A stretch of 64,000 nucleotides of DNA from Haplodiscus bocki (taxonomy: Eukaryota): assembly GCA_965655095.1 (NCBI GenBank), contig OZ296652.1, forward strand, positions 39,866,001-39,930,000, written 5' to 3'. The notes beneath the pieces were generated by a model. It did no database searches. It was not told where the DNA came from and saw nothing but the letters and a program-made list of their open reading frames with translations. The translations under genes were made by a program, and so were the position numbers. This document shows, piece after piece, positions 24,349 to 62,736 of this stretch; the stretch's first letter is position 1, and each line of letters starts with the position of its first letter.

Positions 24349-27300
24349 AAATCCATTCCCTTCTTGTCCCTCGTGAAAAATATTGAAAGATTCATTTCGG
24401 GCTGCGATAGTTAATGCTTCTAGAATTACTGCGAACCACTCTCAGATTTTTCTTTTCCTGGTGTGACCTTTTCAAAATTTAACCGTCCTGATACCGGGGC
24501 GTGGGTGTTTCCAATGCAGAACATGAAAAGCGATTCTGCAGGAAGCTGTGATCATATTCATCAACAATTCTAGAGCTTCTTTCAGTTCATCGCCTCTCGC
24601 AATTTTGGTGCTTCTTCCTCCGAGGGGTCCAAGAGCGTCGAACCTGCGGAGTACAGACAGTTCGATCTTGTATACAACCGCGTGATGAAAACAGAGCGAG
24701 AGAGAATTGAACGACCATCTTCCAGCGTTTCTAAACTGGGCCAACAACTCCACTCTAAAGTTGATACTGCCTACTCCAGGGTTCGTTTCCGCTTATTTGT
24801 ATATTTTTGCCGTCCAAAAAAAGTTTAAAATAAATGGGGTTATCTCATGTAAATGAAGAAAGTGATAAATAATACTAATGCTTGGGCTTTTAGATATGCT
24901 TCAATGAAACTTCAGTCTGTGTATTAAGACGGCTAACGAATGTTTTCAGTCAGCGCTTTAAGTAGTATTCTACTAAAAGCACGACAATTACAGTACTTAT
25001 TTTTAGGACTTCGGAAAATTTTGATTTCGCGAGGTACTTATAATGTAACTCGGTTTTCGTGTTTTTTGATGCTTCTTTGTACAACATTGTGCGACCTCGT
25101 CTGAAAGATGGAATTTTGTGCGACTTTGAAAATTTTTGAATTTTTTGTCAAAGCGCAGCAGAGCGGCGTGGGAGTACAGGAGTGACCAAACGGAGCATCA
25201 TAGTTGCGGCGAAAGCGCGTAAAAAAATCCGTTTTTTTGGAAATCCCATCCTTTTTGGCGGCTATAAGTATTTTACGAAATACTTATGTTTTTCAGTTTT
25301 TCTACACTTTTTTGTTCGGCATTTTTCGACTTCATCCAGTACAAAGATTTTCGTGTGATGTTGTAAAAAATGTTTGAAACTTTTTTCAAGACACAATTAA
25401 GCTGCGTGGGAGTACAGGATGGACCCTATGAACCATCTTAGTGTTGATGAGAGCGCGCAATTCTAAAAATTGATATTTTTTCTCACTCGCCAAGTGAATA
25501 TAGTAGCCCTATCCACCAGCATAAATTCGGCAACACAGCGCAAACTCAAATAAAAACGAAAAGTCAAATTCCTCTGAAGGTATTCATTCTTAGGAGCACT
25601 AGTAGCGGGAATGACCGACGAAGTTGTCCTTAGTTTGAACTGTTCAATTTCAATACGGAGTGTTATCCGATCCGAGCAAAGGTCTAGCCTTTCCCAAGCA
25701 AGAATATTGAATATCAAAATTATTCCAACTTTGGTACAGGGGTTAGGTAGGATCTGTTAAGTGGGCCGCGAAGTTAAATTGGGAAGTATTTTCACCTTTT
25801 ATTGAACTGTTTTATCCGGGCAAAGATGCGGCCATTCGGTGGTATTGAAAAAGAAGGGAATTTTAAAAATATCGAAAAACATTAACTTTATTCTAGTGTC
25901 TCAACGACATTTCGCGACCTCGTCCGATATAAGGACTTTCGAGCAACATTTGATATTTTTTCTGTAGAAAACACAGCAAAACTGGGTAGGAGTACAGGGG
26001 GACCCTCCGGACCATCGTAGTAGCGTTGAGAGCGCACAAATCTACAAAACTTTGTCATTTTCCCAGTCAACGTACTAATAAAGGTTAAACCCACTGTTGT
26101 TATCCCAGCATTTTCCCATGTCCTCTCCGCCTTGGGTGGCTATGTTTCTCTTTAGAACATCGGAAATTTTTAATTTTACGAGCTATATATATTATTGCTC
26201 AGTTTTTGTTCTTCTTGCGCTTCTTGTTACGACATCTGCGAACTGGTCCGAAATATGCAATTTTGTGCGACTTTGAGAATTTTTGAATTTTGCTTTCAAA
26301 ACGCAGCAAAGCTGCGTGGGAGTGTAGGAGTGACCATATTGAGCATCATAGTAGCGGCGATAGCGCGCAATAAAGAAAATTCAATTTGTTTGAAGTCCTG
26401 TTTGCCTTCGGCTGCCATATTATGAAATTCATCACTCACTTTACGTAGATTTGACTGACTTCCTTCTTTTTGTTTTGATAATTGCTGAGATTTAATGAAT
26501 AGTGTCCTTCAGCCCTATGTTTTAGCACCCTTATTGTGCTCAATTATTTAATGTCTTCCGTTGGATCAAGTTCCCAATCCCCCCTGTACTTAGTTTATAA
26601 TCACCCCAAATATGCGCAGCAAGCAGCTCAACCAATCAAATTAAAGCAGTTTGCACACACGCGCATCTTCAAGCCAGTTACACTTAGACACAAATAGAAG
26701 CAACCTGAGTTTAAACGAGGTCTCGTTGTTTATTTTTTTGGTTTTCAGAGCCGCAAAGCTGCTCATCAGTTGCTTAATTTTCTAATCTTTTTCTCGGGAG
26801 TAGAAGCATTGTTGGGGGGAATGATTCAATATGTTAATGTAAGTGAACCAATTTAGTCCTGTAATGATGGGTGAAACCGTCAATGAACGAGACACCCGTG
26901 ATGCGAGAAGACCTCAATGCTTTTGTGAACCAATCACGGAACACCTTGATTGGCTGAATTTGTCTGCTAGAGCTGATCATTACAGTAAAGTGCATGTAAA
27001 CATTTTGATGAATATACGTACATTTGATGAATTCGTAATTTGCTACCACTTTCTACGATGGATTCTTAAATGACATGAGACCAGTACTCGAAATTGAAAT
27101 GAGTCTCACTAAACATAAAAAACTAAATCTCGTACCGGCAGAATGTTTTGATTGGCTGAAATTTACGTGCATACTTTTCAATAACTTTGGTATAATATAG
27201 TCAGCAGATGTCTTTACGAACAACATATTGTTACTAATGGCGGCAGGTAAGTATCTCCGAACGTATCAAAGTCACACAAAACTGCCGCCGATTGGTCGGA

Positions 27301-28524: not shown

Positions 28525-29072
28525 CATGTATTTTCCTTCACTCAAATCAAGTTTGAATTAAATACTTACACTATTTGATTGCATTTATCACGGTTCTGAT
28601 AAATATTGACAAAATAGCCATGTTACTGTTACATAAGGTCACAGAAACTGTGAATATTAAACGTATCTACAAATGTAGTGAATATTACGGCCGGAACATT
28701 GTTTCCATTCAGAATCAGGGGGTTTGGTTATTCTAGTTGAACTGTAGATAATTATTTTGAAGGTTGGTTCTGAAAAGAATGTTAGTCCATTCGGCGGTCT
28801 TGATTATTAAGTTTGTGTTACTTGGTTGAAGTTTGATTCAAATAGTCTATATGCTCATTTATTGCATAGTGTAGCTATTTCATCATTCAAAGCAAGGTAT
28901 TCATTCATCTCTTATGCTCGGCAGATTTGTCAAAAGTAATTGCTCAAAGTTTTTCATCTCACTAATATTATCGTTGGTGCCAGCATTTTTCATTGTCATC
29001 TAATGGATTACTGCTGATAACAATAAACTATTGTGTTTTGATTGTCCAGCTGTAGTTGTAGTTATTCCCATC

Positions 29073-30446
29073 ATGACCAAAGTATCCTTGGCAATTTTTT
29101 GCCTATTGCGGTTATATTTGGTTGTAGCAAAGCCTCTTCCCGTCGGTTCAGAATGCAATAATTGCAAACATTTATCTGCAATTGCAATTGGAAAGTTTTC
29201 ACTTGGTGTTGATTGCGATTATTCCCATTGTTTTTCTGAAAGCGGTCGGTTCTTGAATTCTCACACCTCAAATGAAGCTCTGGAAGAACATGTTTTTGAG
29301 TTGAGTAGGAAATTTCCGCTGATAACACAGGTGCAGACAATCGGCCGATCTGTTCAGGGTCGTCCGTTGCTGGTTCTCATAATCTCTGATAACCCGAAAT
29401 CTCATGAATTGAAAGAACCCGAGTTCAAATACGTCGCGAACATGCATGGAGATGAAATTGTTGGTCGCGAACTTCTCATAAATTTGGCCCATTGGCTTCT
29501 TCACAACTACGAAAGCAACGAAACGGCGACAGAATTGATTGAATCAACCAGAATTCATCTTTTGTTTAGTATGAATCCTGACGGATACGCTGGAGATTCA
29601 AATGGCAAAATACCTCAACGCGGAAACGCCAACGGTGTCGATCTTAACAGAAATTTCCCAAATCTGAATAAAATAGCGTTCAAAAACTTAGAACTGGGCA
29701 TTTGTGAGTCGGAAAACTTGGATAAAAAATATGCAAACCTTTCGACTGATGTTGCCAAAGCTGAGCTTGAAACTCGTGCAATCATTAATTGGTTAGAAGA
29801 AGTGCCTTTTGTGCTAAGTGCCAATCTACATGGAGGAACGTTTGTCGCTAATTATCCCTATGACTCCAAAAGTGGCCAGAACCACTCCAAAACACCTGAT
29901 GATGACCTGTTCAAGTCGCTCGCAATGACATACTCCAAGTCACACGCAGTTATGGCAGCTGCCACCAATTCGGTCCCTTGGTTTTTCCAGGATGGAATAA
30001 CAAATGGAGCTTCTTGGTACGAAGTTGAAGGGGGTATGCAAGATTATAATTACGATGCATCAAATTGTTATGAGATAACTTTGGAACTTAGTCTGTATAA
30101 GAACCCAAATGCCAGTATGCTCTGGATGTACTGGCATCAGAACAAAGATGCGCTTCTTCACTTCATGAAAAAAGTTCACATCGGCATGAAAGGAGTTGTG
30201 ATGAATGTAGATGATGAAATTGTCGCCGATGTTCAAGTAATAGCCCGGCATTCGGGACTCAAACATGACCCAATCACGTGCCACTCAATATCGTCTACGG
30301 TTTATGGAGATTTTTTTCGGTTGCTGCTTCCAGGCACTTATGACATCGAGTTTCGACATCCCGATTACAAAATTGAATTGCTTTCAGCTGTCGAGGTGGA
30401 AGATGACGTCACTGATGTTGGCACAATTTTACTTCGCTCCTCTTGA
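29073..30446 (+). CDS. Secreted M14B metallocarboxypeptidase (carboxypeptidase E/D/M-like), 457 aa, uninterrupted ORF
   Basis: Signal peptide MTKVSLAIFCLLRLYLVVA; zinc ligands in NMHGDE and SANLHGG; substrate-binding DLNRNFP; GITNGASWY; catalytic Glu in EITLELS; C-terminal transthyretin-like domain (GMKGVV...GDFFRLLLPGTY). The first ATG is at 29073; the ORF-track start at 29031 is TTG. Confidence 0.95.
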   Translation: MTKVSLAIFCLLRLYLVVAKPLPVGSECNNCKHLSAIAIGKFSLGVDCDYSHCFSESGRFLNSHTSNEALEEHVFELSRKFPLITQVQTIGRSVQGRPLLVLIISDNPKSHELKEPEFKYVANMHGDEIVGRELLINLAHWLLHNYESNETATELIESTRIHLLFSMNPDGYAGDSNGKIPQRGNANGVDLNRNFPNLNKIAFKNLELGICESENLDKKYANLSTDVAKAELETRAIINWLEEVPFVLSANLHGGTFVANYPYDSKSGQNHSKTPDDDLFKSLAMTYSKSHAVMAAATNSVPWFFQDGITNGASWYEVEGGMQDYNYDASNCYEITLELSLYKNPNASMLWMYWHQNKDALLHFMKKVHIGMKGVVMNVDDEIVADVQVIARHSGLKHDPITCHSISSTVYGDFFRLLLPGTYDIEFRHPDYKIELLSAVEVEDDVTDVGTILLRSS

Positions 30447-31365: not shown

Positions 31366-31557
31366 TAGAAGTTTATATAGTGGAAGTCAATTTTTTCGTT
31401 TCAATTTCAGTAATTCATTTTCCTCATGAATTTCTAAGCGGGCAGACTGAAGTTTCTCTTAGATCCCAACACTGAAAATGTTCTGAGGCCGGTTTTTGAA
31501 AACTTACCTAGTTGAATTTTTCCGAAGTTTGCTTGAGTCCAGTATTCTTCGCCCTAT

Positions 31558-32185
31558 TATAGCGACCCTGCTTTGGGTGCTATGATTTTTGTAAGTTCTT
31601 TTTGCTACGAAAGAAAATTTGATACTTGCAAGAAATAAAATAAATAGTTAGGTTAAATAATTAAAACATTAAAAGTTAGGATTATTAAAACAAAGCATTT
31701 ACAGAAGTGAATAAACATAAAGCACTAACATTATTGGTTTTCTTCGTGATGTAGAGAGGGGAGAAGAGGACAAATTTAAGATTATTTTTCTTTAAGAGGA
31801 GAGAGAGAAGTTAAATTTTGCTGTATAGAAGAGCTGCTGTTTTCTGCACAAAAAGATTGTTACGATTGTTAAAAGAGAGACGAAGGAAAAGTGTGTGATG
31901 GAAAAACACTCACCAGATGGCGGCTATTACGAAGATGTCTACTTCACTAATCGTAGCTGTTTACGAGTGATGACTGATATACTTCATCACTCGTTTTCTA
32001 CAACGAACTGCTACGAGGAACGAATTATTAACGAATTACTCTGATTGTGGTAACGAGAGGTTGACTAATAATGGCCTGGAGAGCCTGGAGAAAGTGAAGT
32101 AAAAATTGAGTACATATTTTACAGAGGTCACGTACTAAAAGCAAAAAAATGAAAAATATTAAACAGTTTTGTTCAGTTTGTTATA
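31558..32185 (-). repeat. 3' LTR
   Basis: Direct repeat of 45371-45998, preceded on the element strand by the PPT. Confidence 0.95.
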
Positions 32186-32188
32186 CGG

Positions 32189-32200
32189 CTTTCTTCTTTT
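32189..32200 (-). promoter_or_regulatory. Polypurine tract (AAAAGAAGAAAG)
   Basis: Purine run preceded by a U-tract, 3 nt upstream of the 3' LTR on the element strand. Confidence 0.7.
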
Positions 32201-32229: not shown

Positions 32230-33196
32230 CTACTTCCAATATTCGCTGGTGTCGATGTCATTCATGGGGCAACAGCGGCTGCATTGGTGTCGTTTTTGAT
32301 TTCGTACAGCTCTCATGCCGCAGCAATCAAGGATGGCGCGGGTGCGGTTGGAGGAAAGTATGCTGTAGAGGGTTGTTAAAAGGGTTGGTACCTCGGAGGG
32401 GCATTCAGGGTGCTGGTCGGGGTGTGTTAATCGTTCAAGTTGCAGGTATTGTCGGCGAATTGTTTGCGGGTGTGCTTGAGGGCCTAACCCAAAGAAGTGG
32501 TAAGTCTTCAGCGGTAAGGCGGTCAGAAGTTTCAGTGAAGCTGGACAGAATTTCGAAGAGCATGCTGAGAGCGCGGTCGTTGTCTTTAGAGATTTTGCTT
32601 GTTTTCTGCATGTCCTCCAGGCGGGACTGTGTGTTGCGAAGATCGCGCCGCAAGGTTTCATTTTCAAGAAGCAATTGATTGACTCTGGTTGTCATATGTG
32701 GTAGACGTTCTTGTTGTCGATCCAATAGATTAGAACGCTCTTTTAATTGCTCTTCAAGACGCTCAAGTTCGTCTGCTTCGCGAAGAAGAGCAGCAAATTC
32801 TCGGTGCTCAACCGAGTCAGTGATCGAACCAACAGTGGATGTTAAAGGCGGGGTTGTAATAGTACTGGCGTCCATGGCATCTGGTAGAACCGGGGGCGGA
32901 ACGGGGGAACACAAGTTACAATCTTGAATGGGATCAGTATTAACAGTCAACTCAGTTACATGTTTGGGTGGGGCCCAAAGCGCTGAAAAGCCAACAAAGA
33001 ATGAGCGGCGACGGCTGTCGAATGCAGGGTGAATCATTACACTATTCGTTGAAGGTACAACGCGAACAACATGGTACGGAGTTGGGTCCACAATATACAC
33101 GGTGTCACCAGGAGCCACATCCGTAAATTGACCGTTAGCAGTGAGAGCTCGGGATCGGGAATGAGACCTGAAACAAAAATGCTTGAAAAGGTTCAT
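32230..33196 (-). pseudogene. Accessory ORF: beta-rich N-terminus, coiled coil, DnaJ J-domain (HPD); one frameshift near 32503
   Basis: ORF 32435-33196 reaches ...LTAED. Skipping one nucleotide (GAC t TAC) continues YHFFGLGPQAHPQTIRRQYLQLERLTHPDQHP..LTTLYSILSSNRTRAILDCCG, matching the J-domain consensus DYY.LG....A....IK.AY..L....HPD....AY.VLSD...R..YD..G. Confidence 0.8.
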
Positions 33197-33556
33197 TAAA
33201 ACACTAAAAGGAAGACGGCGAGTTTCTTACGCGTGAGCGTAGGTGGAAAACCTCTTGAGCTGACTCAAAGACTCGGCGGAAAAGTTTTGCCGGAGAGCCG
33301 AAACCTTCGACTAAGCGTCGAGAAAAGAAAACCTCAGTGTCAAGCACTGGTCAAAAAACGTCACAGCGTGTGAGTTAGGCACGACCTAAGGAGGGGTGGG
33401 AAAAAGAAATGCTCGCGCTACAAATACGCGGAAAACTCTCGGAGTAAAACCCGAGGATAGAAGCATGATTTGACCTCAGTGAATTAGCACTGGACAGAAG
33501 TTGTTTGTAATACATTATATATAATAAATAGGACATAATATTGGAGCGGGAGAAAT

Positions 33557-35950
33557 TTACGGTGGTCGAGCATTAGGTGTGGAGTGCGCGTGAGCAACAT
33601 CGGGGTAAAGGAGGGGTTGTTCTGCTGATGCGTTGCTAGTGGGACAAGTGACAACTTTGCGGCGTGCGAGTACTTCTTTAGCAAGTTCGGATAACGCTGA
33701 AAACTCGTCTTCGGTTAAGTAGAGAAACGCAGTTGTTGCTTGCGTATCATCTGCGGCAAGCTCGTTAACAATATGTAAAAATCGTCCGTGTGTACCGCGG
33801 AAAAAGCGTTGCGGATGAGTGATGAACTGCTTCCATTGACGTCTGAACAAAGTGAAACTGATACTAAAAGAGATCAAAGAAATGGTCATGGACAAAAGAG
33901 CTAAACACAAGGCGCTTTTTGTCTGCATATATCTTTCAAGCGATTTACTCGTGGCTGGTGGAGTGGAGGCGTAGTAGTGAGAAATTGGCTCAGCGACTTC
34001 TTTGAGTTTATCAAAATCCATAGTGTGAACTTCAGGTAATTCTGCTATTTCCATGCGGACACTAGTTAAGACAGACTTGCGTACCTCGCTGTGAGAATAG
34101 ATGTTGAACTCTGCACTCGGTGGTGGTAAGGACTCAAAGACCTTTTGCAACGATGGGGTTAGTTGCACTTTGGCAACAAATGGCTCCGGACGAGTTTCAC
34201 AGTAATCCATGTCCGGGTTCAAAACAAGATCTCCATGGTTGAGCGTCAGTTTCGACGAGCAACCTGGGCGAATGACACATGCTTGACAATCAATAGTGGA
34301 CATTCTAGTGCCATGAGAATTGGTATCGTTCATCATCGGAAGGTGGCGTTGTCGTGAGATGACATGATAAAGACCATCTGCGAGGTAGAAAGCTTGCGGG
34401 GCATCAGGTAACAGAACTGATTCAACATGACAATTTCGAAGAGCAGGAACACTAAAGTTATAAAACAAAGACGTTAAGCACAACAAGGTCACATCTGTGG
34501 TAGTGGAAAATCCTGTTAGGCAAAGTTTGATTCTGTTCGTGCCGGAACACTGTTGTAACGTGGCGACACCCAGTTCGGCGTACTGGGATTTATCAGTCGC
34601 GATAGCTAAATAGTCATGACGGAACTGATACAAAGAAGCGGTAGAACCATCCTCATTGGGCTGATACAATGGAATTACACGGAGAATATTGAATGTGGCA
34701 GACTTTGAATTCATGGGTATTCCTTGTACAACAGAGATACCAGAAGCTAAGATGGAAACTTGTAACACAATTTGAACTTCGTAGTATGTTGCTTTGTAGC
34801 CGACTTGTATGGCTGGTGTTAGCTTTGTACCACGATGAACTTCTTCCATCGTGAGTTCATGAACAATCTCGGCTAGACGATTGGGTGTTAGGAAATTAGG
34901 AGTGACATAGCCGGACGATAATGAAGAAACTGCTGAATAAAGATTAGTTCTGTAAGAAACGAAAGCTGATCGGTAGGCTTTAAGGTGAGTGTAGACAAGA
35001 TCCAAATATGAAGTGTAATTTTCGACTTTAAAAACAAGGTTACTAAAGTGTTTAGTATGGACTACACAATGGTCGAAAAAGTTCAAAGAACGAGTGAGTT
35101 GGTCTATAGCTCTAGAGGTAGCGGTAAAACGGTTTTCAACAACGTCTCTAATTGCCTTGACATTTTCTTGTGTCTTTGAAATCTCCGAGCCAAGGAAGAA
35201 AAATTTTCTGTCGTTGGCTGTTTGAACCGTTTTCATTGTTTCGGCGAAAGAATTCCGTTGGGCCATGAGGGTTGAAATGTCCTTTCTCAAATCTTTATTA
35301 TCACTGCACAGTTTGAAGGTAGAGAGAGCACTGCATGCTGCATCTTTTAAAGGGTTACCAAGAATTAGGCCGGCTGCTCCAGATGCAGCCATCAATGCGG
35401 GAATAAGACGACGTTGCCGAGAATGTCCCGTTTGGCCTTTGTCTTCGTTCGCTTTCGTGGGCGGCGGTGCGAAAGACTCGGCAACTCGAAGGAGTTCAAG
35501 GTGATCATCTGCAATGGCTTTTTGCTCTTTGAAGAGAAGATTCACTCGATATTCGATTGACTCAGCTAAACCTGCCAACTTTGCTAACATATCATTGGTG
35601 TTGACGACGCAATACATGGGTGTGGAATAATATTTGCCTGTGGTAGGATCGATATTATCTTAGTATTTCTGACCGGTATTGGAAAGGTTTTGACGCGCCT
35701 CTAAAACGATCTGGCGCAGGCGGAGGGCTCCAGCTGGATCAATTGCTGGTGGCTGTGGAAATGGTGAAAAAAGTCTAACTTTACTCTCACTTTCAGATGT
35801 GACGGCTTGATAAGTGTAGATAAACACTGCGCCTCGTTGGAAAACCGAGTCTTCTTTCTCGGAGCCCACACTTGTTTGGAAAGTAACTTCAGAACTGATC
35901 ATAAGGAGCCAGGATTTCAGGAAGATAATGGAAATTAGCCAAGGACACAT
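33557..35950 (-). pseudogene. env: env: class I F-type fusion glycoprotein, 797 codons with one in-frame TAA (35660-35662)
   Basis: The signal-peptide ORF 35660-35950 is in frame with the 686-aa ORF 33557-35617. Furin site RQRR, fusion peptide LIPALMAASGAAGLILG, heptad repeats, Cys-rich region, TM helix ALCLALLSMTISLISFSISFTLF and a cytoplasmic tail. Confidence 0.88.
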
Positions 35951-36305: not shown

Positions 36306-37997
36306 CAGGGTGGCCACTTGGTCCCTTTTAAGGGACCTGGTCCCTTTTGGTCCCTTTTTTGTCCCTCAACTTTCAAAAGTCCCTTTTTTAAGGGACCTAG
36401 GGTTGATCAATTTAGACACATTTAGAACAGATCATTAATGTGTAGTAGCTTGATAATAACTTTTTTGTATACCTAAACATCAACTGCGGAATTTCTTGTA
36501 TATTGTTGCCAAATAGCCTATTTTCAGATGTTTCAGACCTATTTGAAACAGGTCTGAAACATTTGTTTTTCAGATGGGTGTATGTAAGGTTACTGAGACG
36601 CTTCTGTCGAAATTCCGATGGACAGTGAGGATACCGGGTGACGAACATCATGTCGAATGCAGATATGACGGCAGGATTCTGTCTGTTAAGGAGGGATGTG
36701 GATCTCTCGAGCAACATCAAACCTACGTCGTCCATGTTACTTCTGAAGCAGTACACTCAGGCGAGTATTAAAATACTTTAATTAGACCTTTGCGTTCATT
36801 AATGCAATATTTTTTACGAAATCAAGTTACAATCGAGATAGCAAATGCCAGAGCCACCACTGTTGCAACCAGCGTGCGAAAGGCCACAATTCTCCATGTT
36901 TTAAACTTGGTCCTCAATAAGCATTCATTCAGATCCAGTGACAGTGCCACCAGGAAACGAGCCATCTACGCCAAGATGTTCCCCGATTCCGCAACAACAG
37001 TGTCCCAAGATAATCGATTTTCCGGGATGCGCTTCTCACCAGTTGAACTTAATCCAAAAGTCTGAAGTGCGCGCATTCGACACCTTCGCTCAAATTGTCA
37101 AGATTATTGAGCTGTTTTCAAGTCTCATTCTTCAAATTATCCGCAACTGGGGTACTGGATGAACTGTTGTCATTTCGGACTGATCTGAGTGAAGAGCAAC
37201 GTACTAAGACACTTAAGTGCTTGTACGAGGATGGCAGCTGCAGCACATTTCATCAATTGACTGAGCTGGTTGAGTCCTGCCTACTGGTTTCTACTCACAA
37301 CATGATTGTCGAATCCGGATTTTCACTGATGAAGACAACTGAGACAAGTTACCAAAGCAATATGACCACAGAAACATATGATGCGTTGAGGACCATACAA
37401 GATTTCTGGGATGTTGAAGACTTCGAAGAAATCGAAATTACGAGTGAATTGGAATCATCAGTAGCTTCGGCCAGTGGACGGTATCGCGAGGTTACGAAAG
37501 AGAAGCAAGTTTTAAATTCCAGAAAGAGAACCTACGCGGAAGAGTTGCGGACCGAAGTTCAGGTATTTAAACGAAAGTCAACACTGACGGTTCAGCGGGA
37601 AATCACAGCGACCAACAATGAGCTTGAGCAAGCTCGGAAGCTGGTATCTGACCTTGAAAGCCGCAAAGCGATGTTAACGAAAGAACGCGACGCACCATCG
37701 ACCTGGTTTCTCTGAGTGCCCAAGGCCTCTGTTATAATGTCTGTTATAATGTATTCTGTTTAAATGGACCAAAGTTACTGGTCACAATCTCTTGCGTTTA
37801 AATAGAATTCTGAGAAATCAGTTCTTAAGTTAACATTTCTTTTTTTTTCTAGTAGTGCCTCTTACAATTCAAGTATAAAAGAGGGTCCCTTAAACGTCCC
37901 TTTTTCTATTTACGGGTTAATTTCAGGTCCCTTATTGGTCCCTTTTTATGAGGCTTCGCAAGGTCCCTTTTTCTTCGAAATAAATGTGGCCACCCTG
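36306..37997 (+). mobile_element. Internally deleted hAT DNA transposon nested in the pol 3' tail
   Basis: Perfect 12-bp TIRs CAGGGTGGCCAC, perfect 8-bp TSD GGTGAGTC (36298-36305, 37998-38005), subterminal GGTCCCT/AGGGACC repeats. Transposase remnants: HSFRSSD..KMFPDS (36790-37065) and dimerisation-domain-like HNMIVESGFSLMK (37095-37715). Confidence 0.9.
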
Positions 37998-39720
37998 GGT
38001 GAGTCTGGTGGTACGGACAGGTTCTTGGAGGAACTTGAAAGATCAAAAGTGTCATTAATTACAGTTCGAGATTGTGCTTGCGATGGAACTTGAGAAAAAT
38101 CTTGAGGTGGGCCACAAAGGGTGGTTCTGCTGGGAACCGAGGATGCTCGTTTTGTACTTGCAAGAGAAGAACTTTGGATGGGAGTTTCGGGGACAAAAAC
38201 TGCAGAAAATAGGGTTGGAGAGGCACTTCGGGGTCGAGGGCTTGGTGGAATTTGGTGGGACAGAGTTTGAGAACAGTTTTCAATGTTCGTGAGTAGCGAA
38301 GTGCGATTTTTGTGGCGGTTTGCTTTCCGGTGCCCTGGGGAGACTTGGTTCACGCCGTGGAAGCTGTAGTTCTGGACGTTGAACGAAGGGCTTTAAACGG
38401 TCATAATGAACGATGGTCTCTTTTTGGTTCACTGTATTTTTGATTTTATATGTTACGTCGTTAAGACACTGTACAATTGTGTATGGACCTTTCCACGGGG
38501 GTGAAAGTTTGGGACTCAGTCCTGTAGAAATTACAGAGCTATGTAACCAAACATTGTCACCTGGCTTGTATCGGGGGCCATGCAATTTAGAATTATACAA
38601 AGCGTTGCGTCGCAGTTGAGCAGCTTGACGATGGAGACGTGCTACTTCGTGAGCTCGTTGCATGTCAACACGTTTTTGTTGAACAAACTGATGCACGTCG
38701 GTTTTGTTGGGTTGTTCTGGCGAAGGGTACTGAATATCAATGGGAAGCTTAATTTCTTCGCCAAAAACAAGAAACTGCGGTGTATAACCTGTCGATTCAT
38801 GCACTGAAGTCCGAAATGCCATCATCACATATGGAAGTTGCTGAGTCCAATTGCTTAGGAAATCATCAACAGATTTGACCAACATGTTTAGTAAAGTTCT
38901 GTTCATTCGTTCGATTACAGCATTTGATTGTGGATGGAAAGATGTGGTTCGCGTTTTATCAATTTGAAGGGACTGCATGAGACTTTGAAAAAGTTTAGAC
39001 TCGAAGTTTCGGCCTTGGTCTGTGTGAATGCTCACGGGAACGCCAAAACGACTAATCCAGTGCTCAAGTAATGCGGTAGCAGTCATTTCAGCTGTCTGAT
39101 CTGGCAATGTGACTGCTTCATACCACTTTGTGAAGTGATCACCAAATAATGCTATAGAGGAATTACCATTTGAGACTGGAAGTGGTACCAGGAAGTCAAT
39201 ACCAATGTGGGCAAAAGGGAAACTGGGAGGCCAATTGACAAGGCTGTGTCTATGTTTTTGCTTGGGGCTGTTACGTTGCTGACAAACAAGACAACTTGAG
39301 ACAAACACACCGACATCTTTCTTATGTCCTGGCCAATAGAATCTAGCTCTAAGCTTTTCTAGAGTTTTTGTTACTCCTAGGTGAGCAGCTGTTGTGGAAC
39401 TGTGAATTGATTTTAGGATTTTGGGTCGCAATGTTGTTGGAATGACTTGCTGTAAATGACTTTGGCCTGTGCTCGAATCCTCAAAACTTCGGCACAGGAT
39501 ATCATTTACGACTTTGAGGGAGTCGAAATTTTTCCAGAGAACCCAAACGTCTTTTGACTGGCCTTAAAGGACTGAGCGATGGGGTTGTTTCTCGTTTTTA
39601 ACGCAATAAAGAACGGTGCTAAGGCTCTGACCGTCTTCTTGTGCTTGTTGCATGTCATTCTTTGTTCCTTTTTCTTTTCGAGTCCCGCTAGGACTGGGAA
39701 TTTGCTGTTGCGGTTGCGTC

Positions 39721-40133
39721 AAAACCGTAACTTTGATGGGCGATTTGTGGAAGCCATCCGTGATGATTCCTTTTACTTTCAACCAATTTAGCTTGTCGAG
39801 TCCTGTCGACAGTCGTGGTATGCTTATCTTTTCAATATTGTGTTTCTGCGCGTGTTGCAACATGGCTTCCAATGCTGCACGTAGGGAACTGTACGTCGGT
39901 TTGTTCCAAAATCTGGGCTTGACTATCAAGTGATAAATAAATCTATTCGGAGAAATTTGCTGTGCATAAATTTTTTCTTTCGATGCCTTCGACCCAAACT
40001 CGGGGTACGTGGTTGGGAACGCTTCCCGAACCTGCTTGGCAATACCTGTTGCAAGCTTGAAATCTGATGGAATGCTATGCGCTATTGAGTCTGTGGAATC
40101 AAATAGATTTCCACTCACTTCTACTAATTCGAT
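39721..40133 (-). other. TARG1/OARD1-like (Poa1p-like) macrodomain embedded in Pol between RNase H and integrase
   Basis: SGNLF..DSIAHSIPSDFKLATGIAKQ..RFIYHLIVK..NKPTYSSLRAALEAM..ISIPRLSTGLDKLNWLKV aligns by eye with human OARD1 (KGDLF..DSLAHCISEDCRMGAGIA..YIYYLITK..HKPTYENLQKSLEAM..LSMPRIGCGLDRLQW). Confidence 0.9.
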
Positions 40134-42574
40134 TTTCTTTGATTTTTCTGTTTGGCAGACTATCTGCACGAAGTCAAAACTTTGTTGACTTCTCTCTTCT
40201 TCAACATCTCGAGTATAGGGATGCTGTTCTTGCAATTTTGGCATCATGTGCCCTTTTCGCTGGGTAACTGGTTCTTTTTCCTCGTTCGTGCGAGGACGGT
40301 TTGGCCATCTGTGTCACTTATTTCATTGTTATTTTGCGTTGGTTGTTTTGCTTCTGCACCGCGCGCAGGTGCATTCACCAGGTCCGTGGTAGCGTCTTGG
40401 TTGGGAATCCTAGACATAGAATCCGCGTGTCCAATACTTTTTCCAGTGCGATGGACAATTTCATGTTCAAAAGCTGCTAGTTTTTCGAGCCAACGTGCCG
40501 TTAAACCATCGGGGTCTTTGAAATTATGAAGCCACTGCAAAGTTCTGTGATCAGTGACAATTTGAAATTTTCTTCCTAACAAGTAGTGCTTGAAATGTCT
40601 GGTGAAATTCACAATGGCCAAAAGTTCACGTTTCGATTTGAGCGAGAACGGCAGCCATTGCATGCTGGCTAGCATCAGTATATAATATGAAAGGTTCTCT
40701 CATGCTCGGGAAGGCCAAGATTGGGGCGGAAGTGAGTCTGGGCTTCAGAACTTCAAATGCTTCCCGGGCTTCGGAATGCCAAAGGTAATCCTTTGATTTC
40801 TCGGTCAGTTGATGCAGGGGACGGGCTATTTTCGCAAAGTCTTGCACATATCTTCTATAGTATGAACAGAGGCCTAAAAAGCTTTTGACTTCGGTAGCGT
40901 TCTTTGGTACCGGGTATCTGTTGACAGTGGAGGTTTTATCAGGATCGGCTTGGATGCCTTCACGGCTCACAATATGGCCCAAAAAGGGAACTTTTTGCCG
41001 GAAAAACTCACATTTGGTCGGATTGATTTTGAGATTGGCGTCTTTGAACCATTGAAAAACTTCGCGGAGGCGCTCTAGGTGTTCTTCGATTGTGCGAGAG
41101 AAAATGATGCAATCATCCAAATAAGGAATTGTAAACTTCCAAGTTAGGCCTACAAGTACCTTTTCCATGAGACTCTGAAAAGTGTTTGGACTGCCGGTGA
41201 GGCCCATTGGCATGCGCAGCCATTTGAATGATCCGAATGGTGTACTGAACGCTGTATAGTCCTGACTTGCTTCTTCCATGGGGAGTTGATAAAATCCCCA
41301 AGACATGTCATTGGTAGAGAAGTAACAACTACCTTCCAAAGTGTCAAAGATTTCCTCGATGGATGGTATCGGCCAACAAGACCTAATGGTCTGCTTGTTC
41401 AACTGCCGATCGTCAATGACAAGTCTCAGTTTACCATTATTCTTTGGAACTAACATAGCGGGTGCACTGTAAGGGCTATGGCACGACTCAATGAGTTCAT
41501 GCTCAAGGAAATTGTCCAACTTTTCCTGAAGGTCTGTTTTGAAATGCATTGGCATCCGGCGATTGGGAAGTTTCACCGGAGTTGAACCTGGGTAAACTTG
41601 AAATCTATGTTGTACGAGATCACATTTTCCGATGTCCCATTCATCTTGCGAGAAAACAGCCGAAAAGTCACGGAGCAGCTGCGCAAATTTGGCATGGGAA
41701 CTTTCGTTCATGACTGGCTTCGCTTGGTGGAGGATGCTTTGGTGGTGGAGATCATACTTGGTGATTGCGGTGTGCTTCTGCTTTGACTGAATCGCTACAT
41801 TGTTCTGGGCGAACGTGTCTTGCAGGATGGTGAATGTTCCTAGTGTTGAGCCTTTATAAATCATTCGATCTTCTCCGGGATTAATAATACGTGCTGGGAT
41901 GGCATCCTCTTGAAGTTCGGAAAGAGTGTTGAAAGCCAAGACATTTTGTTTGTCGCAGAAAGATTGTGAAGGTTCAAAGATTCCTGCTTTTGTCAAGAAG
42001 GTGTGATCATCAAGGTCAATCTTACCTAGAATAATCGCTCCGTGACCGGAGGGTATGAAGGATATTTCTCTGGCAACTAGTCTCATGACTGGGTAGTGCC
42101 AGGACTGAACCGGTGCTGTTCGATGGAAAAGGTCTGCGGAGGTACCTCGGTTCAAACGCAACTTCATTTCAGAAAACATAGGATCACACTTGTGTGTCTC
42201 AAGAAAGTCAATGCCTAACAAACACTCAGCTTCAGAAGCTTCAAGGACAAGAAAAGTATGTCGAAAAGTCATTGATGCTATTTTCATTTCAACTGTAACT
42301 TCACCTTTTACTCTAATCTCGCCTTGGTTGGCGGCTAGGAGTCGTCTAGAACATGGTTTCAGAGATAACTGTATCTTTGGAGGAAGACGAACAAACACTT
42401 CGGGGCTCAAACAAGAAACACTGGCGCCTGTGTCACAAACGGCATCTAACGCAATTTCACAGACCGTAACTCGTACGAAAACACTTTTGTCATCCACCAC
42501 TGAGTTCAAACATTCCGTCTTTTGGAGGCTTTTAGAGTTCCCTGCGCAGTTGCGTCGTTGATACGCTGGTGCTT

Positions 42575-43653
42575 TCAGTTTAAATGTTGGCGTCGGGCAC
42601 GGCATTCGTGCCTTAAGTGACCAATTTTGCCACAAGTGAAACATGCTTTGCACTCACGGCTGGAATCGTTGTTTCGGCCACAATGTTTGCATTTTTCGTC
42701 ATCACTACGCTGCGAACTGGAACTTCGGTCTCGTTTGTTGTTTTTGGAGTTATCTGAGAAGCGAACTTTCGAGTTATTCCTCTGATTGTTGCTGTTGCGG
42801 GCGGTGTTCCGCTAGTTGGGCTGATTAGGTTTTTTAAAGTTGGAAAAGTTGTTATTTCGTCTCGGGCCTGGTGAGGGAGACCGATATCGGTTACTATCTC
42901 GACTGTCTGAGCGATCTCTTTGATTGTTCTGGGAAGCATTTCTGTCGGTACGTGAAGACTTAGCCACTGCGTCTTGAATTTCTGTGCGGAGACTACGAAT
43001 TAACTCATTAAAAGTTTCGAGAGGGCTCTCAGTGCTGATATTGTTAACACCAGAATTTTGTAATTTTAAACCGTCAATTTCAAGAAAAGAGTGAGTTTCC
43101 ACTGCTGCTTGCAGTGCGGCGTCAGCATCTGCGGGTTTCGCTTTGCGAACCTCCCACCGAACAGTTGGGTTGGACAAACCAGCAAAAGAAGTGGTCAGAA
43201 GGATTTCGTTGCGGACAGCCTCAACAGGATATGCATTGCGGGCTAAATCTCGCAACTCTCGAAAAAAAGCGGGGATGGTTTGTCCTGGTTGTTGACGGAG
43301 AGCTTTAACTTTAGCTTTGAGTACATCTTGATTAGGAGCTACTGGGCGCGAAAAGCGTGAAAAAGGCGATTCATGTTAGTCTGCTGGGCTCGAGTCAGGG
43401 AGCGATAGAAACTCAAAGCGTCACCACTGAGGCGGGCAGAAAAGAATTGAGGACGCAAGTCACCTGATGGGTGGTTTTCCCAATCAGAAAGAGACGCAAC
43501 GGAATTGAACTGAGTAGCAAAGTCTTCAAAATCAGTGGTGCCATCAAACGGGGCGGGCAAAAGACAAGAGTAATTAGGCATGACTGTGGCACCAGAGGAC
43601 ATACTGGAAGATTGTTGTGATGCCACGTTTGGGGCTTGATCGTCGGGGTCCAT
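42575..43653 (-). pseudogene. gag: gag (capsid plus two zinc knuckles), disrupted
   Basis: PAPFDGTTDFEDFATQF..RLSGDALSFY..ALRQQPGQTIPAFFRELRDLARNAYP; knuckles CKHCGRNNDSSREC and CFTCGKIGHLRHEC. 1-nt deletion near 43340, TAG at 42812, natural TGA at 42575-42577. Confidence 0.9.
42578..42584 (-). promoter_or_regulatory. -1 ribosomal frameshift heptamer U UUA AAC at the gag-pol junction
   Basis: gag ends CAT TTA AAC TGA; the -1 frame reads TTT AAA CTG AAA GCA (pol frame FKLKAP); a GCGT...ACGC stem-loop follows. Confidence 0.8.
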
Positions 43654-43988
43654 AGAAAACAGAAACTAGAAAAAAAATCAAATAGACGTTCGACACATGG
43701 ACATATAATCGAGGATTTCGTTCAATTCATGGGCCTGGTAAAAACAAGTGAAAGGAGTGACACACTGATATTCAATCAAACATGAATAAAGGTAGTTCCA
43801 AGTTGGGGTTTATGGAGGCACAGAAATCAAATCAACATGTGAATGATTATTAGAGGAAGCGAAAGTTGATTATCGGAACCATCGGTACGACAGCGGATCT
43901 CAGTAACGAGTACGGGACATGGACAGCAAGGAGGAATCCATGAAAAAGAAAACGGAACAACAGTAGTTCCAACCATGAAACAAAGAGA

Positions 43989-44627
43989 CTAAGAGTCAAC
44001 AGACCAAAAAAGGTAAAGAACGAAAGAGCAGTTTGAAAACAACAAACAAAGAATACACAAACAAATGAGAAGAATCAAGAGCCGGTCAATAGAGTGTAAG
44101 CGAGCCAAAGTAGGAGAAATAGTGTCAGGAGGGAAATGCATGGCGCTTTCGTAGCTGGGGAGAGGGGTAGCTTGAGCCTGTTCCGGAGGATTTCCAGAGA
44201 CATTAGAAGTGGAGGAATGTACGGTGGAAGAAGAAGACGTGGCAACAGTGGCACTGGTCGAAGGCAAAGCGGATAAGCGCGGAGTTGAGGCGACTGGTTG
44301 GGCCGTTAAGATGTCAGGGTTGTTGTGGACATACAATTCCAAGTAAAGGAGCCAAAGATTTCCGAGGAGGTAGAAGGTGAGCGCATCGTGAACAGAAGAA
44401 TTATTAGTTTCAGTCAAATAAGACCAAGTGGAAGTGCGTGAAAGATGTGACTGGTAGTGCTGATTGAGAAGGACACTGTGAAGAAGTTGCAATGAAGAAG
44501 GGACCGGGCGACCCTAACCAAGAATACAAGAGTATGGATTTTTAGCTCGTGCACACTGACAAAAATAACAGGGGAAGGCAATGACAAAAGGGCCAGAACT
44601 CGTGTGAACAGTGTGGTAAACGGACAT
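43989..44627 (-). pseudogene. ORF0: accessory membrane protein upstream of gag (one in-frame TAG)
   Basis: ATG at 44627 (MSVYHTVHTSSGPFVIAFPCYFCQCARAKNPYSCILG*) is in frame with ORF 43989-44492 across a TAG at 44514-44516. The product has a Ser/Thr-rich region, an LPSY motif and a C-terminal hydrophobic Cys-rich helix. Confidence 0.5.
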
Positions 44628-45353: not shown

Positions 45354-45365
45354 TGCCTGTCACCA
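45354..45365 (-). promoter_or_regulatory. Primer-binding site (TGGTGACAGGCA)
   Basis: TGG (complement of the tRNA CCA end) lies 5 nt inside the 5' LTR; similar to a tRNA-Leu 3' end with one mismatch, tRNA identity not established. Confidence 0.6.
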
Positions 45366-45370
45366 TTTTA

Positions 45371-45998
45371 TATAGCGACCCTGCTTTGGGTGCTGTGATT
45401 TTTGTAAGTTGTTTTTTGCTACGAAAGAAATTTTGATACTTGCAAGAAATAAATTAAATAGTTAGGTTAAATAATTAAAACATTAAAAGTTAGGGTTATT
45501 AAATTAAAGCATTTACAGAAGTGAATAAATATAAAACACTAACATTATTGGTTTTCTTCGTGATGTAGAGAGGGGAGAAGAGGAGAAATTTAAGGTTATT
45601 TTTCTTTAAGAAGAGAGAGAGAAGTTAAATATTGCTGTATAGAAGAGCTACTGTTTTGTGCACAAAAAGATTGTTACGATTGTTAAAAGAGAGACGAAGG
45701 AAAAGTGTGTGATGGAAAAACACTCACTAGGTGGCGGCTATTACGAAGATGTCTACTTCACTAATCGTAGCTGTTTACGAGTGATGACTGATATACTTCA
45801 TCACTCGTTTTCTACAACGAACTGCTACGAGGAACGAATTTTTAACGAATTACTCTGATTGTGGTAACGAGAGGTTGACTAATAATGGCCTGGAGAGCCT
45901 GGAGAAAGTGAAGTAAAAATTGAGTACATATTTTACAGAGGTCGCGTACTAAAAGCAAAAAAATGAAAAATATTAAACAGTTTGTGCAGTTTGTTATA
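45371..45998 (-). repeat. 5' LTR
   Basis: Direct repeat of 31558-32185 (about 20 differences counted by eye); element-strand termini TATAACAAA...GTCGCTATA. Confidence 0.95.
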
Positions 45999-48900
45999 CT
46001 ATGAATGATTCATCGTATTTTTAGTTGGCTCTGTTTCAGTAGAAGTGCTCGACTATTACACCGGCTTTAATAATAAGACGGCTTAGTTTCCTTCAAATCA
46101 ATCCCATTTTTGTACACATTTTACGCGAAATTCTTCCTGGTCGTTAACTAGGTGATCTTTGAAGGCGAAACTTTGAACACACGAAAAGCCCCTTCAGATT
46201 TCTCAGCAATTTGAGTTTTTTGGACAAAAAGTGCAATACTTCCTTTTGATACATGTCAATTCTTTAAAATCATATTTCTGATCATCATAGTGTTCCTTAA
46301 AGTTTTGGCATTGGCAGACCAAAACACTTCCGACAAAAAATGTGATTCGGTGTACTTAATAAATCGATTTTTTAAAAAAATCAAATGACCTCCTCCATGA
46401 GTGCTTTCAACCTAAACTCGGGTATTGACAACAGCCATCACGGCGCTCATCGGCTCTTTCCAAATTGCATCATTTTGGCTCTTAAATCTTCAATTGCTTC
46501 ACGTCTGCTAATTTTCTCGGTCTCAGCCAAGGCTTTTCTGAAAGCTTACAATAATTTGATGCTTCCAAGTGGAACTGATTTTTCGAGGTTTTCATTTTCG
46601 TTGTTTACACATTCTGACTGAAGGCAAGAATTTGTATTGTAAACGGCTAATGTCCAGTTGTTAGAGGCGACCAAGTGAAGCGAGTAAGACTTCTATTGTT
46701 GACACTTCTGTCATAGTGACACATTTTTGAACGAAGTGAAAATTTCGTTCCCCGCTTACTGCTTACTTGCAAATTTCCCGCCCAATTTACCATTTCACTA
46801 CATTTAAATCTTCCAATCAAAAATTTTGACCGTTTTTACGTAAGAAACAATATAAATCAGTTAACTAACATTTTTTGAAATTTTGCCAATTTCCGCTGTA
46901 TTAGATGAAACTAGGCGTAAATTATTAATTTTGCAATTTTTACCCGAATTCTGAAATTTTTGCTACCCATATAACTTTAACTTCTGGCTCGGAATTAACT
47001 TTACTCAATTTTTGACCAAAAATGCATCTTTCTGCTGTGGAAAACGCTAATTTGTGAGATTTTTAATGTGAAATTATTGGTAATTCAACAATTTCTGACC
47101 GAATTTCTCCATTTCGGCCCTAATTTTTGCTATTTTAACTAATCAAAACAAATTGCCCAGCCTTCAATCAAATTAGGACGAACGTACAGTTTTTGGAACA
47201 TAATACTCTTTTTGCTGAACGAAAACTTTTTTGCGTTTTTTTAAATACACGAAAATGGCTCATTTCGTTTTTTCGGTACTTTCACTGTTTTGCTTTCTCG
47301 TCTTGGTTTTTAAATACGCATCCAGTATAAATTAATACAAATTTTTGATTTTTGAAGCTTTTGCAAAGGTTTGATATTTGTCAAAAAGGCGTTTCTAATA
47401 ATTGAAAGTCAGCCAGAATTAGCGGATGTCGTAATTATCCCCCGTTTTGGGTACTTTTGCCTGCATATCAACTTCCTAGCTACTTTTGCCAACTAAGCCG
47501 AGACAGATGCACGAAATTGATTTTTGCAAATCCGTTATTTATTCAGGTTTTTTCGGTGGTTTAAAGTAATCGACGAGTAGCTTGTTTTTGATTTGCGGAT
47601 TTTTCGACTTGTGACTTTCAATTCTATTATTCTTCTACAGTTGTTCCAAATTTCTTCTCAATAATGGCATAAAAGTTTGAATTTTCAGAAAACTTTGAGC
47701 AGTTTCAAAAACAGTTATCTCGATAACGGTTCATATGATTTTTCCCCGCATGGCCTCAATCGAAAGCTAAGCGTTGTTAGAGATGATCACATGTAGTTTT
47801 TTCTTGTTCGTTTCGGCTTTGCGAAGAAATTCTTCGGAACTGCCACAAAACCTAATTTGTAGACATCTATCCATTCTGGAAGACTTTTCTTTAACGGATC
47901 TTTGGAATTGTTCATTCCAATATTTTGAATGTTTTCCCCCATAACCGCTCGTTGGATTTTACTCGGTGGGCCATATGTCTCCGGAAGTGACTCAGTCGGC
48001 TCCAGTTTGTAGATAATTTTAAAGTTCTCGAAAGTTTTTTTTTGAAAACACTTGGAAATACAACATGTAACAACTCAGATCGATTTTGTTCTTTCTTTCC
48101 CACTAAATTCCGTTTCGTTATCAAATTATATTTAGGTGCCGGCAGGGTCTAATTTTTTAATCAGACAGTATGACAGGCACTATGCAAACGTCCTAAGCTA
48201 AAGGGACATCAATGACATCAATTTATTAATGTGACACGGTGTGGCAGGTACTCGCTAATTTACGGATTTTTTGTGTAAATCACTTGAACATTCAGTAGCA
48301 AAATGATGAAGTACCCTGAAACAGCTCGAGAACCGCCTGAAGTTGGCGCGCCTATCGGCGGGACACGAAAATTTGTGTGAACCATAGAGGAGTCATGTCT
48401 TCTTTTTTTCTCTCAAAGTGCCGAAAAATTTCAATGTTTCTATGATATTGAGCTCTAAAGCATTACGAAAAACTCGATATTCTTTTTTCGTCATTTGGTG
48501 AAATTCGAAGGATGTTTTCAAAAAGATCGTGATCGCCTAGCAAGGTTTCTCGAAGATCTTAGATGTTTGCGTTTGGGGAAATTTTTCGGAATTTACAAAG
48601 GTGATATCAGTTTTGTTGTGTCACAGTTGCTGAAACTTCGTGGGAGATACCGTTTAGTGTTTCGCAAAAATTTTTCCTTTGCCAGCAAAGCGTTTTATTG
48701 AACGAAAAGTGGGCCGTCCAACGAATAAAAATGGATCGTTTCGAAGCTAGAAAAGTGTCTTGCGAAAAAACTCACTGTAATAGTTGGGCATTTTTCTTCT
48801 GGAAAGTACCGACTAAAACATGACTGATTTATCAAAAATTTGAATCTAAGAGAGTATGGCAAGTACTAGTTTTTTTGCGTTGTTTACTATGCAAAATTCT

Positions 48901-56409: not shown

Positions 56410-56658
56410 TGTTGCGGTCGAAAAATGAAAAACTTGAGAAATTGGAAATTTTTCATTATTGGTTGAGTTAGATGTTTATAAACCTCAAAAATTTCTTACC
56501 AGTTGCTCAACATATGATATCATCGATAAAGCGCATTATAGCGTCTTTATGAACCTTAAAACAACAAAACAGTGAATTCCGCGCCTGACCCTACCCTGAC
56601 CTTTACAGTGTCGTATTTCAAGGTCACATAATGCAATTGACCTGATTTTTCGGTTTGC
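56410..56658 (+). repeat. Bel/Pao 5' LTR (3'-truncated)
   Basis: Homology with 62449-62700 ends at CGGTTTGC and runs straight into gag-like ORF 56655-57473. Confidence 0.85.
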
Positions 56659-62448: not shown

Positions 62449-62736
62449 TGTTGCGGTCGAAGACTGAAAAACTTGAGAAATTGGAATTTTTTCATTTGAG
62501 TTAGATGGTAGATGTTTTTAAACCTCAAAAATGCCATACCAGTTGCTCAACAAATTATATCGTGGATAAAACGCATTATTGCGTCTGTATGAAACTTAAA
62601 ACAGAACAAAACAGTGAATTCCACGCCTGACCGTTCCCTGATCTTTAAAGTGTCGTATTTCAAGGTCACCTGATGCTATTGACCTGATTTTGCGGTTTGC
62701 GCGTTCTATGTGCACCAATGTACCTCTATGCCAACA
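62449..62736 (+). repeat. Bel/Pao 3' LTR
   Basis: TGTTG...CCAACA termini, preceded by purine-rich AAAGACAGGGCAGGCGA. Confidence 0.85.

Follow-up and report, generated by a model that had tools for sequence, protein, structure and literature searches.

In humans, TARG1 is the enzyme that takes base-linked ADP-ribose off RNA and DNA. Macrodomains of viruses are well known, and databases annotate such domains. The catalytic pair of TARG1 is Lys84 and Asp125, of which the bacterial antitoxin DarG keeps the lysine only (PMC9967889, PMC7050489). TARG1 was found to remove uracil-N3 and guanine-N1 ADP-ribose from RNA at least 10 times better than from protein (bioRxiv 10.64898/2026.03.31.715305), and ADP-ribosylation of transposon-derived RNA has been raised as a possibility (PMC7050489). 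RNA viruses and phages are known to use erasers for counter-defence (PMC6397177, PMC11825919), and macro-domain ORFs have been described in fish epsilon-like endogenous retroviruses (Basta 2009, as cited in PMC4977317). In a survey of errantiviruses, the usual insect bridge domain was named 'pseudo-RNase H', with five strands of which the second and third are swapped, and some elements carry two of them in tandem (PMC13524379). A search of the literature outside Repbase, GyDB, CDD and the subscription journals found no paper on a TARG1-type domain in the Pol of an LTR retrotransposon; a term search of the accessible text of PMC4299795 gave no mention of macro or ADP, and the accessible part of PMC9040795 contains nothing on such domains.

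The window, by which we mean the whole 64-kb stretch of DNA analysed here, had received an initial annotation from its letters alone, which placed a macrodomain of 'TARG1/DarG class' inside Pol, between RNase H and integrase, at 39721-40133 of the minus strand. This interval translates without a stop, and the domain as delimited in Table 1 has 139 residues. A Pfam search, which had been proposed as a check, returned Macro with E 3.6e-7 and 30.6 bits against a cut-off of 22, and Pfam also bore out the placement, with RNase H upstream and integrase downstream. Human TARG1 accounted for the 5 best of 8 PDB sequence matches (E about 1e-21, best 8e-22), and DarG-type entries ranked behind it with E 0.001-0.08. 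The domain was modelled with AlphaFold from a 58-row alignment (pLDDT 92.4), and the model superposed on TARG1 with Z 23.2 and an rmsd of 1.5 Å over 135 residues at 36% identity, and on DarG with Z 19.6, TARG1 being the nearest relative in both sequence and structure. Membership in DarG was considered and rejected, since NCBIfam antitoxin_DarG scored 35 bits against a cut-off of 250 and only profile positions 28-145 of 338 were covered. A DarG/DarT operon was rejected as well, the neighbours of the macrodomain being RNase H and integrase instead of DarT. By sequence comparison and model, the window domain is a TARG1-type macrodomain and not DarG; the first half of the original class name stands, while 'DarG-class' was too loose. 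The two catalytic residues named at the time were also found in place when TARG1 numbers were counted along the PDB alignment: LIVK aligns to LITK of TARG1, with the Lys84 equivalent at codon 39918-39920, and GLD aligns to GLD of TARG1, with the Asp125 equivalent at codon 39795-39797.

As shown in Table 1, the macrodomain is hosted by a Ty3/gypsy LTR retrotransposon of 14.4 kb on the minus strand, which has the LTRs, the target duplication and the PR-RT-RH-IN order of that group (Metaviridae). The two LTRs match at 96.5% (K2P distance 0.033), and no tRNA gene was found within the 64-kb window. The probable gag gave no Pfam match. The env-like ORF showed Atlas features of 0.94-0.95 to the Fusion_gly, Baculo_F and Gypsy clusters at a low recognition value (1533), with no Pfam match and no useful PDB sequence match. 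The nested insertion, which we take to be hAT-like, contains a 220-codon ORF (37053-37715, plus strand) without a Pfam or NCBIfam match. An extra ORF without an assigned family was seen in the 5' leader (43989-44513, minus strand). The linkers flanking the macrodomain had been described as low-complexity; they are polar, show little conservation and are not low-complexity in the strict sense. In the linkers of P0002, no 12-residue window reaches 2.2 bits and a few reach 2.5; P0002 is a natural open-frame family protein of 1608 aa and served as the reference for reading the window pol.

Table 1. Features of the macrodomain-bearing element, in positions of the window
Feature	Position	Strand	Basis or remark
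5' LTR, 628 bp, TATA...TATA ends in place of TG...CA	45371..45998	-	repeat comparison
3' LTR, 628 bp, TATA...TATA ends	31558..32185	-	repeat comparison
4-bp target-site duplication CTAT	31554-31557 and 45999-46002		flanks LTRs
Primer-binding-site-like stretch, starts TGG, 5 nt past 5' LTR	45354..45365	-	sequence read; role inferred
Polypurine tract ahead of 3' LTR	32189..32200	-	sequence read
Probable gag, frames 43339-43665 and 42812-43375	42812..43665	-	gag inferred from position
pol piece 1: protease, RT, RNase H start; ends at frameshift and deletion	40626..42653	-	Pfam; tblastn of P0002
pol piece 2: remaining RNase H and linker 1 start, different frame	40244..40699	-	Pfam; tblastn of P0002
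TARG1-type macrodomain	39720..40136	-	Pfam, PDB sequence matches, AlphaFold model; within ORF 39564-40313
Linker 2 and start of conserved pre-integrase segment, ending at in-frame stop	39564..39719	-	
Integrase: H2C2 finger, rve core, C-terminal domain	38280..39563	-	Pfam
Nested DNA-transposon-like insertion in Pol tail, 12-bp terminal inverted repeat, 8-bp target duplication	36306..37997	.	
Env-like open ORF, 700 codons, resembles paramyxovirus/baculovirus F and gypsy env	33557..35659	-	Atlas features
263-codon ORF between env and 3' LTR, coiled-coil-like stretch	32435..33226	-	weak matches only, all below cut-off

Other sequence in the window was recorded as well. An unbroken 480-codon zinc carboxypeptidase ORF (Peptidase_M14; 29004-30446, plus strand) adjoins the element, and a decayed BEL/Pao-like element lies at about 56400-62700, in which Peptidase_A17 is matched at 60333-60950 and repeats of 87% are spaced by about 6 kb. 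A dispersed repeat family of about 95-230 bp is present at 13686-13800 and 25002-26391, with at least 4 copies of 65-90% identity, and short tandem arrays (period 15-19) at 17125-17213 and 20738-20798 form opposed inverted arms about 3.6 kb apart. The ORF at 2261-2788 (plus strand) resembles an env fusion-peptide region by eye, and tblastn with the env of the element as query gave no match at E 0.01.

Read against P0002, the window pol shifts frame and lacks about 23 codons in RNase H at about 40632, and it has a second frameshift in linker 1 at about 40307, an in-frame stop at 39564-39566 just past the macrodomain, and an additional break near 38280. Two breaks of the Pol frame lie ahead of the macrodomain and one right after it, and the 1.7-kb nested insertion also interrupts the Pol tail. 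Intact gag and pol, by which errantiviruses were recognized in PMC13524379, are both broken in this copy, although an open Pol is known in the family (P0002). The window copy is a non-functional relic, which cannot make the macrodomain as part of Pol. The description 'inside Pol' is right as to the place between RNase H and integrase, but not as to the reading frame.

To follow the domain in related elements, a search with the RNase H-to-integrase region was performed. It recovered 49 long Pols; a macro match was present in 24, and in 1 of these it was weak. The window's clade consists of 20 Pol proteins (P0002, P0176-P0194). Pairwise identity among them is 32-87% in the macrodomain (median 50), with medians of 79% in RNase H and 13% in linker 2. 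His32, Ser35, Asp37 and Lys90 are kept in all 20, Lys84, Asp125 and Gly123 in 19 each, Cys33 in 19 and Thr83 in 17. Conservation of 85% or more was seen at 9 of 13 literature-named pocket positions versus 33 of 126 others (Fisher p 0.003, indicative only, as the rows are related), and column conservation correlated with what is seen in 110 outside TARG1-like domains (Spearman 0.66). Most of the clade domains have a basic pI (range 7.2-10.1), and the site of the RNA-docking Arg86 is K or R in 18 of 20. In an RT tree, built with 7 of 51 Pols left out, all 16 clade Pols with enough RT formed one clade (SH-aLRT 100) and all carry the macrodomain; in the domain tree, the macrodomains of the window's clade grouped together with support 99. 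At the protein level, such a pattern looks like vertical inheritance under purifying selection. Since the active site is kept in these related elements, they probably carry their own eraser of ADP-ribose marks.

The wider spread of the domain was examined with HMMER, which returned 2162 representatives at E 0.001 or better, the best 150 of which were analysed further. Before counting, 9 of 147 matches were dropped, as were domains with fewer than 95 aligned residues, and the Pfam scan covered the 59 of 147 matches of 200 aa or more. Among the matches listed, at least 12 outside the window's family have retroelement flanks, with RNase H before, integrase after, or the domain following integrase, its zinc finger or a protease, and Lys84, Asp125 and Ser35 are kept in 12 of 12. 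The TARG1-like domain comes after integrase in P0054 and P0129, and just after the integrase zinc finger in P0073 and P0124. TARG1-like genes occur in 15 phage records at 24-34% identity. In P0072, P0077, P0115 and P0165, a TARG1-like domain is fused into a DNA ligase or a ligase III BRCT protein, and in other matches it is joined to NADAR, HMG box, SLOG or PWI domains.

A further search was seeded with a macro-bearing insect-type Pol, and the best 120 of its 1313 matches were used. Bridges were parsed in 121 of 127 Pols and the 6 without a parsed bridge were left out; among the matches listed, 13 of the 121 contained an intact macrodomain and 4 a decayed one, and reversed controls for the bridge scan reached E 0.17 at best. 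The insect errantivirus-like Pols with an intact domain, a distant lineage, carry the same module at the same place as the window's clade; Lampyris noctiluca errantivirus 1 is among the named carriers, as are proteins of Harmonia and Rhynchophorus. All 14 members of the insect set, P0147 included, retain Lys84, Asp125, His32 and Thr83. Decayed macrodomains stand directly before integrase in P0207, P0209, P0212, P0214 and as the second domain of P0147, with Thr-Lys still visible in P0207 and P0209. Separate captures in the window's clade and in insects were considered and are not demonstrated: the RT tree needs at least 3 label changes, but the AU test on 39 domains does not reject one origin (p 0.52), and deep nodes are unresolved in the quick trees. 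Transfer between elements, or repeated loss, may also have occurred.

Beyond the fold, the position and the selective retention of the active site, which the analysis establishes, we propose packaging, a cleavage pattern, an activity, a substrate and a role in counter-defence as follows. Pol is packaged along with RNA, so the captured TARG1-type ADP-ribosylhydrolase, made as part of Pol, would enter the particle and travel with RT and integrase. After proteolysis, it would most likely remain on the integrase N-terminus. A hydrophobic-Asn motif resembling a gypsy protease site, whose pattern was set with the data already in view, comes after RNase H in 13 of 20 clade Pols and after the macrodomain in 1 of 20, versus 0 of 50 background windows, and this placement of a putative cleavage motif suggests a macro-integrase product in the sister clade. 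The 14 insect Pols are split, 4 having the motif ahead of the domain and 4 behind it, so that attachment to integrase does not hold generally. The domain could then use the Lys/Asp mechanism of TARG1 to strip ADP-ribose placed by host PARPs on the element's nucleic acid, whether RNA bases, single-stranded cDNA or the DNA ends that border the integration gap, or on acidic residues of element proteins, and removal of the marks would keep reverse transcription and integration going. Judged from sequence and model, we give a probability of about one half to a Pol-borne ADP-ribose eraser that protects element nucleic acid and integration intermediates in working clade members. Most insect errantivirus-like Pols manage without an intact domain, despite the macro-bearing query, and this counts against it. 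Conservation of the Lys/Asp pair fits binding as well as catalysis.

Some gypsy integrases are steered by chromodomains. It is rather unlikely that the macrodomain, fused to integrase, serves as an ADP-ribose reader that guides the integration complex towards chromatin that is PARylated or towards sites of DNA damage. The suggested macro-integrase fusion in the sister clade and the TARG1-like domains found after integrase or after its zinc finger would suit such a reader, and transposons often recruit chromatin readers (bioRxiv 10.1101/2021.11.30.470311). However, the catalytic Lys and Asp are conserved as well as the binding residues, and a pure reader could lose them; in addition, the motif in 4 of the 14 insect elements suggests that the domain stays on RT-RNase H. 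It is unlikely, too, that the domain is a housekeeping aid which removes ordinary PARP1-type marks from the gapped integration intermediate and thereby lets host repair seal the gap, with no counter-defence involved, although the ligase and ligase III BRCT fusions named above tie the module to nick sealing and TARG1 acts in DNA repair (PMC7050489, PMC4695847). In the nucleus, host TARG1 would normally do this work, a private Pol copy is more easily explained by substrates inside the particle, and the patchy gain and decay across lineages looks more like conflict.

The pocket of the window's own family was compared with TARG1 as well. In the window copy, the His32 site is kept (codon 40077-40079) and the Ser35 site is altered to Pro (codon 40068-40070), and of the distal-ribose pocket His32/Cys33/Ser35/Thr83 only His32 is retained. 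The Thr83, Gly121, Cys33 and Gly41 sites differ from TARG1 throughout the family, and the Cys33, Thr83 and Gly121 sites changed here are 87-96% fixed among 122 outside domains, suggesting that the domain of the window's family may be weaker or altered. The TARG1 pattern TKx(30,35)Px[IL]GxGxD, as published in PMC6397177, had no match in the window and matched 0 of 27 close copies, because of the departures at the Thr83 and Gly121 sites; it was fitted by 12 of the 19 Pols from sister families and by 9 of the 14 from insects. The close copies (27 matches of 68-91% identity, mostly fragments) kept Lys84 in 20 of 25, Asp125 in 21 of 22 and Ser35 in 21 of 25. As a test of selection they were rejected, since they are mostly decayed and drifting and Lys84 is conserved no better than its neighbouring positions. 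The claim that catalytic residues are retained can be kept for the Lys84/Asp125 dyad, which is seen in the window; its retention under selection is supported by distant sister families only and not by the close copies, and other pocket residues depart from TARG1.

These departures bear on whether the clade enzyme is active while the domain of the window's family was already weak or binding-only before its copies spread. The changed Cys33, Thr83 and Gly121 sites and the pattern counts of 0 of 27 close copies versus 12 of 19 sister proteins favor such a family-specific decay, which we nevertheless regard as quite unlikely: P0176 and P0177, from two sister families, share the Thr83- and Gly121-site changes with the dyad intact, so the changes may be old and tolerated, and P0002 has 21 of 24 class-conserved positions. 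It is highly improbable that a host transcript supplied the domain as a neutral passenger or structural spacer, for despite decayed versions in insect elements and freely drifting close copies, the active-site residues stayed fixed while the flanking linkers diverged to near-random identity, which largely refutes it.

Several insect Pols contain an intact macrodomain followed by the usual bridge domain. The latter was folded from 16 natural stretches (P0313 469-592 and 15 other insect Pols), and the model reached pLDDT 90.1 with five main strands; judged by where it lies and by the number of strands, it probably corresponds to the published 'pseudo-RNase H'. Against 48,161 PDB representatives, its best structural match was a Bacteroides ALC1-type protein (a weak Z of 6.7, rmsd 3.4, 99 aligned), with a leucine-aminopeptidase N-domain, Poa1p and TARG1 among the further top matches. 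The top 50 structural rows, all with Z below 8, comprised 20 macrodomains, 9 leucine-aminopeptidase N-domains, which we take to be macro-like, 4 unclear cases and 17 other folds; no RNase H-titled entry was among these 50, which does not in itself exclude an RNase H fold. Foldseek gave no match at E 0.001 or better, the comparison with the macrodomain profile by hhalign gave a probability of 0.6% with 5 of 30 column shuffles equalling the score, RNase H did no better (0.13%), and only unnamed short clusters were found in the Atlas. The modelled insect bridge domain folds most like macrodomains, without sequence support, and we treat this as a weak lead rather than a result.

Tentatively, the RNase H-integrase bridge of env-carrying gypsy elements might be a long-standing macrodomain slot that acquired ALC1/TARG1-type domains, saw them decay and acquired them anew. 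The same tentative reading would arrange the bridges in a series, from active-looking domains (the window's clade and 14 insect Pols) through decayed and detectable ones (4) to the fold-only 'pseudo-RNase H' of most insect errantiviruses. If true, the slot would point to an ancient and so far unrecognised conflict in which animal hosts and LTR retroelements contend over ADP-ribosylation, probably that of RNA or cDNA bases. A re-examination of the recently named errantivirus domain is suggested.

Taken together, sequence and model indicate that the module is a real and selectively kept member of a known enzyme class in a little-studied setting, of which the window copy is a dead and somewhat atypical representative. 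The apparent novelty is a TARG1-type domain fixed in Ty3/gypsy Pol, with the active site held across divergent families and in a second lineage. Because TARG1 erases base-linked ADP-ribose, these domains make it testable with small proteins whether animal PARPs attack retrotransposon RNA or cDNA. Compared with human TARG1/OARD1 (ALC1-like macrodomain class), the window domain is alike in fold, Lys84/Asp125 dyad, His32, Gly123 and minimal domain size, but it is embedded in a retroelement Pol, and its family differs at Cys33, Gly41, Thr83 and Gly121, the window copy also at Ser35. The bacterial DarG antitoxin shares the macrodomain class, the catalytic Lys and a similar fold, whereas the window domain has the Asp125 partner and no DarG C-terminal part was found with it. 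With the env-carrying Ty3/gypsy errantiviruses (Chary and Hayashi, PMC13524379), the element shares an extra RNase H-integrase bridge domain and an LTR-gag-pol-env layout in which its own env is a putative F-like one; in that survey the bridge domains go by the names 'mini' and 'pseudo-RNase H', the main text mentions neither macro nor ADP nor OARD, and at the places examined in the supplements 'macro' is part of species names only. Fish epsilon-like endogenous retroviruses likewise captured a macrodomain, described as extra ORFs in vertebrate retroviruses (Basta 2009, as cited in PMC4977317). With RNA-virus macrodomains and phage orphan ADP-ribose erasers, the likeness is that a mobile element bears an eraser against host ADP-ribosylation (PMC6397177, PMC11825919); the RNA-virus macrodomains form a separate clade and the characterised phage enzyme is a NADAR, whereas the domain in the window is TARG1-type and belongs to a reverse-transcribing element.
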